Shown: positions 30,169-34,211, numbered from the stretch's first letter. The stretch is DNA of 45,391 bases from Candidatus Woesearchaeota archaeon (GCA_964483015.1 CAZAAB010000001.1:1-45391); one strand, 5' to 3'. Numbers and translations: made by a program. Notes: generated by a model from the sequence alone, not told the origin.

Positions 30169-31122
30169 TTAAACCCCGCTCTCTTTTATCTTCATTTTCT
30201 TTTTATCTTTACCTAGCAATACAACTCTGCTTTCAATTTGCTCATCTAAAAACTTGTATTTTGGCAAAAATTTTAGCAACAGTTTACTGTAATGTTCAAT
30301 CTCTTTATGACTTGGCATCTTGTCATAACCATATCTTTTTCTTGCCTCGCCTATAGACATAAAGCTTTTTACCTCAACAAAATCAGGATTAGCTTTCTTT
30401 ATCAATCTTGCAAAACCCTCTAAAAATCTTTTTTTCATATTCTTTTTTCTCATCAATGTCAACCTTATAACTTTTCTCGTTTTCAACTTTTTCATTAAAT
30501 CCAAACTTTTATTAAATCTTTCCCAAGCATCTTTTAACTTGCTTTGATGCCATTTTTCATACTCTTCTTTATTAGGACTGTTTAAGGAAATGTATAACTG
30601 GGTAGGCAACTGATTATTCTCTTTTAATTTTTTTATTGCTTCAGGATATAAGCCATTAGTAACAAGAAAACTTTTAATTTTTCTTTTTCTTAATTCTTGA
30701 ATTAATCTGCCCAACTTAGAATGCAATGTAGGCTCTCCAATCAAACTTATGGCAAACTGATTTGGATTTCTTGCTTCTTCAAGCTTTTTCATATTAATAT
30801 TTTTATTGCCCTTAAAACCAGTTAATAGTTTTCTTTGATTTTCTATACTTTTTTCAATAATCTCTTCAGGTTTTTTTATTTCTTCCTCACTTTTTTCTGT
30901 TAATTTAATAGGCCTCCAGCAATGTATACATTTATTTGGACAAGAAATAAAAGGAGACATCTGGCAGCACCTATGTGAAGAAATGCCATAAAACTTTTCT
31001 TTATAGCAGCAGCCTTTATCTAATAAGCTATTTTTAGTCCAGTTACAAATTTGAACTGCCGAATTCCCAAATAATCTATATTGTTTTCTCTCTAATTGTT
31101 TTTTCATATCTCCTGAAACCAT
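30169..31122 (-). CDS. taw1: tRNA 4-demethylwyosine synthase (radical SAM, TYW1/Taw1)
   Basis: CCYKEKFYGISSHRCCQMSP followed by the CPNKCIHCW (CxxxCxxC) cluster, typical of TYW1. Confidence 0.85.
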   Translation of the reverse strand: MVSGDMKKQLERKQYRLFGNSAVQICNWTKNSLLDKGCCYKEKFYGISSHRCCQMSPFISCPNKCIHCWRPIKLTEKSEEEIKKPEEIIEKSIENQRKLLTGFKGNKNINMKKLEEARNPNQFAISLIGEPTLHSKLGRLIQELRKRKIKSFLVTNGLYPEAIKKLKENNQLPTQLYISLNSPNKEEYEKWHQSKLKDAWERFNKSLDLMKKLKTRKVIRLTLMRKKNMKKRFLEGFARLIKKANPDFVEVKSFMSIGEARKRYGYDKMPSHKEIEHYSKLLLKFLPKYKFLDEQIESRVVLLGKDKKKMKIKESGV

Positions 31123-31156: not shown

Positions 31157-32551
31157 CTAAAAAAAGTTAACCACCCACAAATACATCAATAGCAAGAAAA
31201 TGAAAATTAAAAAATAAGTTGAAAAGTTGTAAGCTTTTTTAGCAATTTTCTTTGATTTTGTCAGGCCAAGTATTGTAAGGTAGAAAACACGGCCGCCATC
31301 AAAAATTCCCAAAGGCAGCATATTGACCAAAGCTACTGAAAAACTGATTAAGATAACCCACCACAACAAATTATATATAAATATTATTAAATTGCCATCT
31401 ATTCTTGGCCTATAATATGTAAAAGGGTCGCGGAAAAATAAAAGGCTATCTCTCAAACTTTTTAAACCCCCAAAAGAACTTGTTTTAGCCGGAGAAATAC
31501 CTAAGTAAGATTTATTATTGTCTGGTCTTTCTGCCAACTGGATATTAAACTCTTGTATGGAATCATTTAGCGAAGTTTTAATTAAAACATTGTCTCCTGG
31601 ATTTTTTTTATTTAAAGCTGATTCTAAATCTTTATTATCTTTAATTTCTTTACCATCAAAACTAACTATGATGCCTGCTAAACCAGCCTTTAAAGCAGGG
31701 CTATTTTGGAAAGCAATAACCTGGCTAACATTATTTTCTTTTGCATTTTCTAAAATTGTTTTTTCTATAAAAAAAGTCTTGTTATTTGATTTAACTTCAG
31801 TCAAGTTTAAACCCCCATTTAAATCAATAGAAAGATTATTGTTTATATTGGTTATATTGTTTGTGGCAATAACTGATGAAGCATATGAGCCAAAAACAAC
31901 ACCTGAAGGAGAGTAAGCAAGAGAAAAAAATAGCCAAAGAACAAAAAAGAACAAAATAGCCATCAAAACATTTGCAAAAGTTCCAGCAGATAAAAACCCT
32001 AACTGTTCTTTTATCTTCAACTTGCTGGCTTTTTTTTCATCTGGCTCTACAAAAGCCCCGGTAAAAGGGCCTAAAAATGCAAAACCAGTAGATTTTATTT
32101 TAACATTTCTCGCCTTAACAAAAATCCCGTGAAAAAACTCGTGAGGAATAGCAGCTATAGCTAAAACAATTATCCAGTAAGTAAAGTAAAATGGGGGCAA
32201 AAAATCAGCCTTGAAAATTCTTGGAAGATAAGGGACAAGAGGCATTAAAGGAGGAACCTTAACAATTTTAAACAACTCAGGGAACTTAGAAAAAACATAA
32301 ACAAGTCTAAACAACAAGTATAACATAATAGCCATTAAAGCATAGCCAGTAGCAATAACCACGTACTCAAGCCAGTGCAATAATCTTTTGTACTTTTCTC
32401 CCAATGTTTTAATAATTTTTAATCCTAACTTTGTCCTGTAAAGAAAAACAATACCTTCCCTCCCTAAATTTTTTCTCTTAATTATAAGAAAAGTAATTAA
32501 AAAAGCACTAAATACAGCTAAGAATATCAAATCATAAATAAAAAAATCCAT
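31157..32551 (-). CDS. M50 family site-2-type membrane metalloprotease with a PDZ-like insert
   Basis: HEFFHG (HExxH) in a TM segment; NMLPLGIFDGG motif; soluble insert between the TM blocks. Confidence 0.8.
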   Translation of the reverse strand: MDFFIYDLIFLAVFSAFLITFLIIKRKNLGREGIVFLYRTKLGLKIIKTLGEKYKRLLHWLEYVVIATGYALMAIMLYLLFRLVYVFSKFPELFKIVKVPPLMPLVPYLPRIFKADFLPPFYFTYWIIVLAIAAIPHEFFHGIFVKARNVKIKSTGFAFLGPFTGAFVEPDEKKASKLKIKEQLGFLSAGTFANVLMAILFFFVLWLFFSLAYSPSGVVFGSYASSVIATNNITNINNNLSIDLNGGLNLTEVKSNNKTFFIEKTILENAKENNVSQVIAFQNSPALKAGLAGIIVSFDGKEIKDNKDLESALNKKNPGDNVLIKTSLNDSIQEFNIQLAERPDNNKSYLGISPAKTSSFGGLKSLRDSLLFFRDPFTYYRPRIDGNLIIFIYNLLWWVILISFSVALVNMLPLGIFDGGRVFYLTILGLTKSKKIAKKAYNFSTYFLIFIFLLLMYLWVVNFF

Positions 32552-32554
32552 TTT

Positions 32555-32734
32555 TTATACTGTAGTAGCTTTTTGCCTCTTTTTTATCTGTCTAAAAGAC
32601 CTTTTATGGCATTTTCTGCATTTTATCTTGCCTTCAACTATTTTTCTAGGGTCAGCCCTAATCTTACTCTTACAGTTTTTACAAACAAAAACATTCTTAA
32701 ACAATCTGTTTTGTGCTTCAGGTATTTTTGCCAT
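32555..32734 (-). CDS. rpl40e: 50S ribosomal protein eL40 (59 aa), not in the ORF track
   Basis: Hand translation MAKIPEAQNRLFKNVFVCKNCKSKIRADPRKIVEGKIKCRKCHKRSFRQIKKRQKATTV; CxxC...CxxC and basic tail; starts 1 nt after the aIF5A stop. Confidence 0.75.
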   Translation of the reverse strand: MAKIPEAQNRLFKNVFVCKNCKSKIRADPRKIVEGKIKCRKCHKRSFRQIKKRQKATTV

Positions 32735-32735
32735 T

Positions 32736-33125
32736 TTACAATTTTCTTTTAATTATTTTTTCTCCTTCAGCATCCCAGTATTCAACATTATCCCCTTCAT
32801 CAATCTTATCTTTCATCTCTTCACTTATGTCAACATCTATCGTTTTATAGTTTTCGGTATCCATAATATTCGCCACATTTTTGTTTACCGACAAGACTTG
32901 CGCCTTGCCCTTAATAACTTCTGGAATCTTCATTCTTTCATGTCCAGGGACCACCATAACTTTTTTTCTGTTATTTAAAATCCCCTCAGCTTCTATTCTA
33001 ACTTTTTTATGCCCATGTCTCCCAGTAGTACTGGTATCAACTTTACTCACAGTATAGGGGTTTTCATCTATAATTATAGCATTTCCGGTCTTAATGTCTT
33101 TAGCATCAATCAATTTTAGAGTCAT
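32736..33125 (-). CDS. eif5a: translation initiation factor 5A (aIF5A), Arg at the hypusine position
   Basis: 129 aa; the STTGRHGHKKVRI loop aligns with the canonical SK(P/T)GKHG(H/S)AK; OB-fold C-terminal domain. Confidence 0.85.
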   Translation of the reverse strand: MTLKLIDAKDIKTGNAIIIDENPYTVSKVDTSTTGRHGHKKVRIEAEGILNNRKKVMVVPGHERMKIPEVIKGKAQVLSVNKNVANIMDTENYKTIDVDISEEMKDKIDEGDNVEYWDAEGEKIIKRKL

Positions 33126-33179: not shown

Positions 33180-33440
33180 TCATCTTGTTTTATAAGTTAT
33201 GTAAGTAAGTATTGCCAACCCTTTAACAAATTCAATATCTTCTGGTTTTATTTCATAATACCTTTCTTCATCAGACATTGCCCTTGAAACTAGGTTATCT
33301 ATCATACACAGACCTTCATCTTTACCATTTTCTTCACAAATATAACAAGAATTAGGAACAGACAAAGACACTTCTTTACCACTTTCAGTAATTCCTATTA
33401 AGCCATGATTTGTACTTTCTACTTTCTTTAGCAAAGGCAT
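33180..33440 (-). CDS. hypothetical 86-aa protein
   Basis: ORF only; no family assigned. Confidence 0.4.
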   Translation of the reverse strand: MPLLKKVESTNHGLIGITESGKEVSLSVPNSCYICEENGKDEGLCMIDNLVSRAMSDEERYYEIKPEDIEFVKGLAILTYITYKTR

Positions 33441-33521
33441 GTTTAAACAATCTTTTTTTGATTTATAATTATTTCTATGATTAGAACAACATTTAAAAAC
33501 CGTTTTCTTTTACTATTAAAA

Positions 33522-34211
33522 ATGGCAGAAAAAAACAAGGAAAAAACAAAAGAAAAGCTGGAAAAAAATGATTTTGTCAATTTAGAGTATATAGGCAAGA
33601 CAAAAGAAGGGAAGATTTTTGACACTAATATCAAGCAAGAGGCAAAAAAAATCAATATGAATATTGAGACAAGGCCATTAGCAATATGTATAGGTCAGGG
33701 AATGATTTTGCAAGGAATTGACGAATTTTTAAAAGGTAAGGAAACAGGAAAAGAGTATACTTTAGAATTAAAACCAGAAAAAGCATTTGGTAAAAGAAAA
33801 AAAGAGCTGGTAAAAACAATGCCTATTTCTGTATTTGAAAAACAAGATGTTGCCCCAAGAAGAGGAATGATGTTCAATTTTGACAACAGCATAGGAAGAA
33901 TTTCAGCTGTTTCAGGAGGAAGAGTAATAGTAGATTTTAACAACCCTCTTGCTAACAAAGATGTTATTTATGATTTAAAAGTTAAAGAAAAAATTAAGGA
34001 TAAAAAAGAAAAGGCAAAAATATTAATAAAGACTTTTTTTAGAAAAGAATTTGATTTTGAGATAAAAGATAAAAAGTTAATTATAAAGATGCCAAAACCA
34101 TTTAGCCAGCTGGCAAACATGTATAAGAGAAAATTTAAGGAAATATTGGGGTTAGATTTAGAAGTTAAAGAAGTAAAGAAAGAAGAAAAAAAACAAGGAA
34201 ACAAGAAATGA
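33522..34211 (+). CDS. FKBP-type peptidyl-prolyl cis-trans isomerase (SlyD-like, with C-terminal extension)
   Basis: Start reassigned to MAEKNKEK; DFVNLEYIGKTKEGKIFDTN and GQGMILQGIDEFLKG motifs. Confidence 0.8.
   Translation: MAEKNKEKTKEKLEKNDFVNLEYIGKTKEGKIFDTNIKQEAKKINMNIETRPLAICIGQGMILQGIDEFLKGKETGKEYTLELKPEKAFGKRKKELVKTMPISVFEKQDVAPRRGMMFNFDNSIGRISAVSGGRVIVDFNNPLANKDVIYDLKVKEKIKDKKEKAKILIKTFFRKEFDFEIKDKKLIIKMPKPFSQLANMYKRKFKEILGLDLEVKEVKKEEKKQGNKK

Follow-up and report, generated by a model that had tools for sequence, protein, structure and literature searches.

The aIF5A gene and its neighbourhood

The window analysed here, that is, the whole stretch of 45,391 nucleotides from a Candidatus Woesearchaeota archaeon (GCA_964483015.1), encodes an aIF5A that lies between a divergent FKBP-type prolyl isomerase and, downstream, a small Cys-rich protein and an M50 protease (Table 1). 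The deduced aIF5A scored 99.2 bits against TIGR00037 (cut-off 75.45) and 37.2 against PF21485 (27.1), and PF08207 was matched too, while the stricter equivalog NF003076 was narrowly missed (122.6 vs 138) and the score against TIGR00038 was 39.5 bits, with a cut-off of 185.8. The whole window genome gave this single aIF5A match, and a second aIF5A or EF-P copy was not found in it.

Table 1. Features of the aIF5A locus in the window and of the deoxyhypusine synthase (DHS) locus on contig C6 of the same genome
Feature	Sequence	Coordinates	Strand	Remarks
TYW1-like radical-SAM wyosine-formation gene	Window	30169..31122	-	PF04055 and PF08608; downstream of M50, position conserved in relatives
M50 site-2 protease with PDZ domain	Window	31157..32551	-	Pfam; conserved downstream neighbour, marks aIF5A orthology
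Small Cys-rich, zinc-ribbon-like protein, 59 aa	Window	32555..32734	-	Directly downstream of aIF5A; conserved neighbour
aIF5A coding sequence	Window	32736..33125	-	ORF of 129 aa; the genome's sole aIF5A; TIGR00037, PF21485, PF08207
Lys40 codon AAA	Window	33006..33008	-	Ala/Ser in relatives; H-A-K to H-K-K; confined to this genome
Arg36 codon AGA	Window	33018..33020	-	Column of the hypusine-acceptor Lys; single transition from AAA
Thr33 codon ACT	Window	33027..33029	-	Lys in relatives; S-K-T-G-K to S-T-T-G-R
86-aa ORF between FKBP and aIF5A	Window	33180..33440	-	No Pfam match
FKBP-type prolyl isomerase, FKBP26-like	Window	33477..34211	+	Pfam; divergent from aIF5A; conserved neighbour
c3	C6
DHH gene	C6	322..1356
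317-aa gene	C6	1360..2313		In the DHS slot; EamA transporter (PF00892, 98.5 bits)
ProRS gene	C6	2316..3746

The loop of the window protein is S32-T33-T34-G35-R36-H37-G38-H39-K40-K41. When it was aligned with PDB chains using phmmer, R36 fell opposite the Lys of G-K-H-G in 1IZ6, 1BKB, 8PUT and 1EIF, in each case ungapped ('tsttgRhghkk' against 'vsspgKhgsak' in 1IZ6 and 'ksktgKhgsak' in 1BKB). The sequence-only reading had placed an Arg at the position of the hypusine Lys, within the loop S-T-T-G-R-H-G-H-K-K and encoded by the complement of 33018-33020; sequence and PDB alignment agree with this, and the Arg stays in the hypusine column when solved archaeal aIF5A structures are used as the reference. 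Recoding of AGA was considered and rejected, as this gene also uses AGA for the Arg of K-V-R-I-E, which is invariant in the family. In the AF2 model, which was built with 41 homologues in the input and had a mean pLDDT of 92.3, the protein consists of an N-terminal SH3/KOW-like barrel and a C-terminal OB fold, with R36 midway along the loop that connects strands 22-33 and 40-48. The top Foldseek matches of this model were 1BKB, 1IZ6, 2EIF and 8PUT, with TM scores from 0.79 to 0.89, the latter for 1BKB.

The gene order FtsZ-FKBP-aIF5A-M50 is common to relatives of both loop types, and the M50 gene occupies the same place in L088, in L216 and in 11 Arg-type loci. The Cys-rich neighbour is 54 aa long in relatives and has a weak, sub-threshold Pfam match to LIM. 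Throughout the family, FKBP and aIF5A form a divergent pair, with a single intergenic region between two factors that are both related to proline. In the window, this region also holds the 86-aa ORF, for which a set of 1.84 billion representative proteins contained eight relatives; some of its homologues occur as six to eight tandem repeats within proteins of 960-2350 aa, and one lies near the aIF5A gene of G431. As the ORF belongs to such a tiny, repeat-like family and occurs at just two of the 13 Arg-type loci, it was rejected as a partner of aIF5A. A conserved, Arg-type-specific neighbour of aIF5A was absent from the 13 loci. Sequence, fold and synteny all place the window protein in the aIF5A family, although the acceptor Lys and the partner DHS, both treated as defining, are missing.

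Distribution of Arg-type aIF5A and of deoxyhypusine synthase

The nearest relatives of the window aIF5A in a collection of 5.8 billion proteins are 44-62% identical to it and almost all carry S-K-T-G-K-H-G, as did nearly all of the approximately 230 aIF5A loops of relatives that we read. An orthologue with 59% identity (P0005), recovered both from NCBI (GCA_964566345.1) and from the Logan assembly of SRR7048220, has the loop I-S-T-T-G-R-H-G-H-A-K within the same FtsZ-FKBP-aIF5A-M50 order, and a relative 82% identical to this orthologue also reads S-T-T-G-R. A search started from P0005 led to four Arg-type sequences, with the loops STTGR (P0029), STPGR (P0050), SRPGR (P0102) and SKTGR (P0126). 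A degenerate DNA pattern encoding S-x-[TPAS]-G-R-H-G-H-x-K-x-R-x-E was also run against the species genomes of GTDB and matched 19 loci, 10 of which were Arg-type aIF5A; nine of these ten carry the label Pacearchaeota, Woesearchaeota, Nanoarchaeota, 'archaeon' or 'bacterium', and the tenth is labelled Dojkabacteria. The scan gives a lower bound, as shown by the SKPGR sequence of G161, which surfaced separately. Since the same Arg is found in diverged orthologues from independent assemblies, Arg-type aIF5A is a lineage trait and not an error.

The comparisons below are based on 12 Arg-type genomes (G000, which is the window genome, G347, G267, G288, G431, G161, G452, G454, G455, G456, G457 and G458); G449, G450, G451 and G453 correspond to G347, G288, G267 and G431, respectively, with identical coordinates and sequences. 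Each Arg-type genome retains one intact, full-length aIF5A, and the Arg codon is AGA or AGG in 13 of 13 loci, a single transition away from AAA or AAG. A second aIF5A/EF-P copy was absent from 9 of 10 other Arg-type genomes. The exception, G452, which is labelled Candidatus Dojkabacteria, carries an extra, partial Lys-type aIF5A on another contig (L100/L111). Both G452 and G454 (L104, labelled 'bacterium') bear bacterial labels, yet they encode an archaeal aIF5A in the DPANN gene order, and both bins are probably mislabelled or mixed.

Among the sequences without Lys at the hypusine site, 17 have Arg and one has Ala. The Ala variant (P0026, S-K-P-G-A-H-G-H-A-K) is known from two records (L216, 443-829, and L217, 436-822) with the usual FKBP-aIF5A-M50-TYW1 synteny and lies within the SKPGR/SRPGR clade, which speaks against a strict need for Arg in all lineages. 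The position three residues before the site also varies: Thr occupies it in 5 of 17 Arg-type sequences, from three Arg-type lineages, as compared with 4 of 106 Lys-type sequences.

The number of origins was estimated on maximum-likelihood trees of 98 and then 124 aIF5A sequences, from which the loop columns had been removed and whose resolution is limited by the short alignment. Well-supported branches forced at least five changes between K and R in the smaller set and at least seven in the larger one. The window protein grouped with L088 and P0029 (STTGR; support 97/85), and this group joined G173 (SKTGK) and G296 (STTGK) with support 100/84. Genome taxonomy agrees with the trees: Arg-type species occur in the GTDB genera g1, g6, g30 and g39, each of which also includes DHS-positive species, as well as in g96 and g201. 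Arg-type aIF5A has accordingly arisen at least 5-7 times. Phylogenetically independent pairs of aIF5A residue and DHS status were concordant in 4.5 of five cases on average and discordant in none, a comparison that is underpowered at this sample size (n=5, p ≥ 0.06).

The window genome comprises 535,671 bp in 49 contigs and is 83.6% complete and 0.1% contaminated; PF01916 (DHS) gave no match in it at E ≤ 1 at this completeness. By comparison, DHS was detected in 147 of 151 genomes of the order sample and in 365 of 401 of the family sample. None of the 12 Arg-type genomes, for six of which completeness is reported, had a DHS match, while Lys was present in each of the 75 DHS-positive genomes for which we read the aIF5A loop. 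Approximately 30 of 395 Lys-type genomes of the family sample (7.6%) likewise gave no DHS match, and most of them have a contig end at the DHS locus (G205, G295, G137, G024, G254, G153, G311 and G402).

In relatives, DHS is found in one of two arrangements, ProRS-DHH-(c6)-DHS-c3-c4-c5-c7 (G043, G126, G061, G249, G284, G021, G009 and G128) or ProRS-DHS-DHH-c3 (G173, G057, G015 and G075). G173, a relative from the same genus with an S-K-T-G-K aIF5A and a DHS, has the order ProRS, DHS, DHH, c3, and contig C6 of the window genome is colinear with it across nine genes, the EamA transporter gene standing where G173 has its DHS (Table 1). In four other Arg-type genomes the flanking genes abut without a DHS: c3-DHH-ProRS with a 275-bp gap in G347, c3-c6-DHH-ProRS with a 199-bp gap in G288, ProRS-557 bp-DHH-c3-c14 in G267 and DHH-c6-126 bp-c3-c4-c5-c7 in G452. 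In two more the slot has been refilled, with other genes between c3 and c6 in G454 and between c6 and c4 in G161. The resulting count of 7 of 12 assembled loci, which includes the window genome, leaves out three in which the locus is rearranged (G431, G455 and G456) and two too distant for the DHH probe (G457 and G458). A family HMM of 18 DHS members, run at --max sensitivity on six-frame translations, detected no relic of the gene in these Arg-type loci or anywhere in the window genome (best E 0.85). As the locus is assembled and devoid of DHS in seven Arg-type genomes, while the Lys-type genomes that lack a match mostly have contig breaks there, the loss of DHS is real and not an assembly gap.

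Several further observations were made at these loci. The former DHS interval of G454 and G161 contains homologous HTH-type genes with the N-terminus MxxxKxxLMxLxDEK... (L190, 2957-5074, and L187, 3192-3794, respectively). Among the Lys-type relatives (L174-L185), two DHS subtypes can be told apart by their identity to the G173 enzyme (55-67% and 28-37%), and in G088 the divergent subtype is clustered with an agmatinase gene and, as judged by eye, a fold-III PLP decarboxylase-like gene. The genes near DHS in G173 that are absent from the window genome are, again by eye, one serpin-like gene and two without an obvious family, none of them polyamine-like.

The supply of agmatine was compared between the 12 Arg-type genomes and 12 Lys-type, DHS-positive ones. 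Pyruvoyl arginine decarboxylase (PvlArgDC, PF01862) was present in 0 of 12 and 7 of 12, respectively, and an agmatinase-type enzyme (PF00491) was intact in 2 of 12 (plus one frameshifted, in G457) and 9 of 12; every Lys-type genome of the panel had one or both. The supply side of the agmatine route thus tends to disappear together with DHS. The agmatinase-type gene of G457 (L144, G457:C10, 2073-2758) is split by a frameshift and a stop with its metal-binding motifs still readable, and reflects either recent pseudogenization or an error of assembly. The arginine decarboxylase of G173 lies in a region of approximately 19 kb (L143, G173:C1:59000-78999) that has no counterpart in the window genome, being either a variable island or unassembled here. 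A syntenic deletion of the decarboxylase was therefore discarded as uninformative, the entire region being without a counterpart.

Of the four Lys-type sequences with Thr at -3, two belong to genomes; these genomes, G179 (L139) and G296 (L077), have an S-T-T-G-K aIF5A with Lys retained, no DHS match and no flanking DHH gene. They may be intermediates between the loss of DHS and the change from K to R, with a DHS locus that is unassembled. As for the order of events, no Lys-type genome proved to be a verified case without DHS, the locus being unassembled in these two and broken in most of the others.

The proposal, made from the sequence alone, that the organism may lack hypusination is supported by the Arg in the acceptor column together with the absence of a DHS and of a Lys-type copy. 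It had pointed to a dhs gene and a second, Lys-type aIF5A as findings that would speak against it, and to the joint occurrence of the K-to-R change and dhs loss in relatives as a further check. In the genome, no dhs was detected by either PF01916 or the six-frame family HMM, and no Lys-type copy was found; among the relatives, all 12 Arg-type genomes were without a DHS match, the locus being assembled and empty of DHS in seven of them.

Function of the Arg-type protein

The window aIF5A is intact and not fast-evolving. No variation is seen among Lys-, Arg- and Ala-type sequences at G35, H37, G38, K41, R43 and eight more columns, and the median terminal branch length is 0.20 for Arg-type and 0.18 for Lys-type sequences (p = 0.53). 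The window proteome contains five PPP motifs in 146,602 residues, compared with four in 114.4k aa for the DHS-positive congener G173. A lower number of polyproline motifs in the Arg-type genome was accordingly rejected, the density being equal to that of G173. One of the five motifs, D-T-P-P-P-T-V-S-G, lies in a class-I aminoacyl-tRNA synthetase-like fragment, and we take it to resemble a conserved ValRS motif. A low polyproline demand may make the loss of DHS tolerable in the group as a whole; since the density is the same in G173, it leaves unexplained which lineages lost the enzyme.

We consider it most probable, at roughly 60%, that these organisms have a single functional aIF5A, that hypusination has been lost, and that R36, most likely unmodified, at least partly replaces (deoxy)hypusine. 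The DHS gene would have been excised from its conserved locus and the agmatine-supplying enzymes largely lost, and the acceptor Lys would then have changed to Arg by one A-to-G transition. The Arg-type protein would still bind the ribosomal E site and reach the peptidyl-transferase centre, where the contact that (deoxy)hypusine makes with the CCA end of P-site tRNA would be provided, at least partly, by the guanidinium of R36, which is long and cationic. It would most likely do so without a modification, which could be tolerable perhaps because polyproline motifs are very few. That Lys was replaced repeatedly by Arg in particular suggests that Arg is better than a bare Lys, and its predominance over Ala (17 to one) suggests selection for Arg rather than drift. 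In eukaryotes, K50R eIF5A cannot be hypusinated and is perhaps also inactive, which counts against function with a bare Arg. Mouse models carrying the K50R substitution are reported to have impaired hypusination (PMC10084858).

Alternatively, R36 could be the acceptor of an undescribed modification, introduced by an enzyme unrelated to both DHS and EarP and analogous to the rhamnosylation of Arg in EF-P; we regard this as possible but doubtful. The same predominance of Arg, in at least five independent events, is what one would expect if a particular acceptor or functional group were selected for, and bacterial Arg-type EF-P is rhamnosylated at the tip Arg (PMC6544042). His at +3 is found in 17 of 17 Arg-type loops, 10 of which were pre-selected for it by the search pattern, as compared with 68 of 106 Lys-type loops. 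However, EarP (PF10093) was not found in five Arg-type genomes, no conserved gene specific to the Arg type lies beside aIF5A at the 13 loci, and the sole extra neighbour, the 86-aa ORF, has the sparse distribution described above. Moreover, these genomes, of 0.4-1.3 Mb, are shedding pathways, and the Ala variant P0026 is nested within an Arg-type clade. That Arg-type DPANN recruited a new modifier of R36 after losing hypusination, which would represent a third way of modifying the tip in the EF-P/IF5A superfamily, this one archaeal, seems to us slightly more doubtful still.

A decay of aIF5A in reduced symbionts, in which the protein would have become non-functional after the loss of DHS and the change from K to R would be neutral drift, is improbable. 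The variation at -3 (K to T or R), the Ala of one relative, the highly reduced genomes and the rarity of polyproline motifs are what such a decay would lead one to expect, but every Arg-type genome keeps an intact, full-length copy, whose surrounding loop residues and other columns are invariant, whose branches are as long as those of the Lys type and whose structure is modelled with confidence; drift would not give Arg in 17 of 18 sequences, and the ValRS-type PPP motif is still encoded. Finally, although this is a MAG of 49 contigs at 83.6% completeness and some 8% of the Lys-type genomes of the family, mostly with contig breaks, are also without a DHS match, it is highly improbable that AGA is a sequencing or assembly error for AAA with DHS hidden in the unassembled 16%, as this Arg recurs in assemblies made independently and in the genomes of 11 other species, and comes together with two more substitutions in the loop. 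Moreover, the DHS locus of the window genome is contiguous, with both flanks present and the EamA gene in the slot, and no relic was detected genome-wide.

If aIF5A functions with an Arg that is most likely unmodified, as we favour, hypusination, which is regarded as universal among archaea and eukaryotes, seems to be dispensable in these tiny-genome, Pacearchaeota-like DPANN lineages. Natural lineages have removed DHS and exchanged Lys for Arg repeatedly and recently, within genera that keep DHS-positive species, and they offer an experimental handle on what the hypusine side chain contributes at the peptidyl-transferase centre, on whether plain arginine suffices and on which compensating changes are needed. 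The role of the DHS homologues of DPANN is not obvious, because some of them may act on agmatine and be similar to bacterial enzymes of the homospermidine type; the tight co-variation of the aIF5A residue with DHS is comparative evidence that they act on aIF5A. Annotation is affected as well: these genomes will be misjudged by equivalog models and marker-gene sets built on a universal archaeal DHS and G-K-H-G. The finding is of interest to specialists in translation and polyamines.

Comparison with known systems

Our literature search returned nothing on Arg-type aIF5A or on archaea without DHS. [quoted passage not shown] Canonical archaeal aIF5A, as represented by P. horikoshii (1IZ6), P. aerophilum (1BKB), M. 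jannaschii (1EIF/2EIF) and the Sulfolobus aIF5A-DHS complex (8PUT), shares with the window protein its two-domain fold, its length and a loop frame in which G-x-H-G...K.R is invariant, and it is likewise encoded by a single-copy gene in a conserved housekeeping neighbourhood. The window protein differs from it in the change of the acceptor Lys to Arg, in that of the Lys at -3 to Thr and in the absence of the partner DHS.

Rhamnosylation of the tip Arg is needed for the activity of Arg-type EF-P. The EF-P/EarP system of Pseudomonas, Shewanella and Neisseria (PMC6544042, PMC4739656) has in common with the window protein the tip Arg, the beta3/beta4 loop and a homologous KOW-like domain directed toward the peptidyl-transferase centre. 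However, EF-P has three domains and the window aIF5A, with 129 aa, two, and the window loop, T-G-R-H-G-H, is of the aIF5A and not of the EF-P type, its Arg originating from a recent K-to-R change within aIF5A and not from the EF-P lineage. The analogy with a rhamnosylated Arg, to which the sequence-only reading had drawn attention, was rejected in its EarP-like form, with PF10093 found in none of the five Arg-type genomes searched, the window genome included.

The best functional analogy is provided by the modification-free members of the same superfamily, namely the PGKGP-type EF-P of Actinobacteria (bioRxiv 10.1101/2023.09.18.558224) and EfpL/YeiP of E. coli (PMC11611912; loop in PMC13602936), which act without a dedicated tip-modifying enzyme. 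These bacterial, three-domain proteins compensate by means of a special loop, with either a two-residue extension or a palindromic PGKGP, whereas the loop of the window aIF5A has neither an extension nor a palindromic P-G-K-G-P and retains the canonical length, ungapped, with the sequence T-T-G-R-H-G-H.
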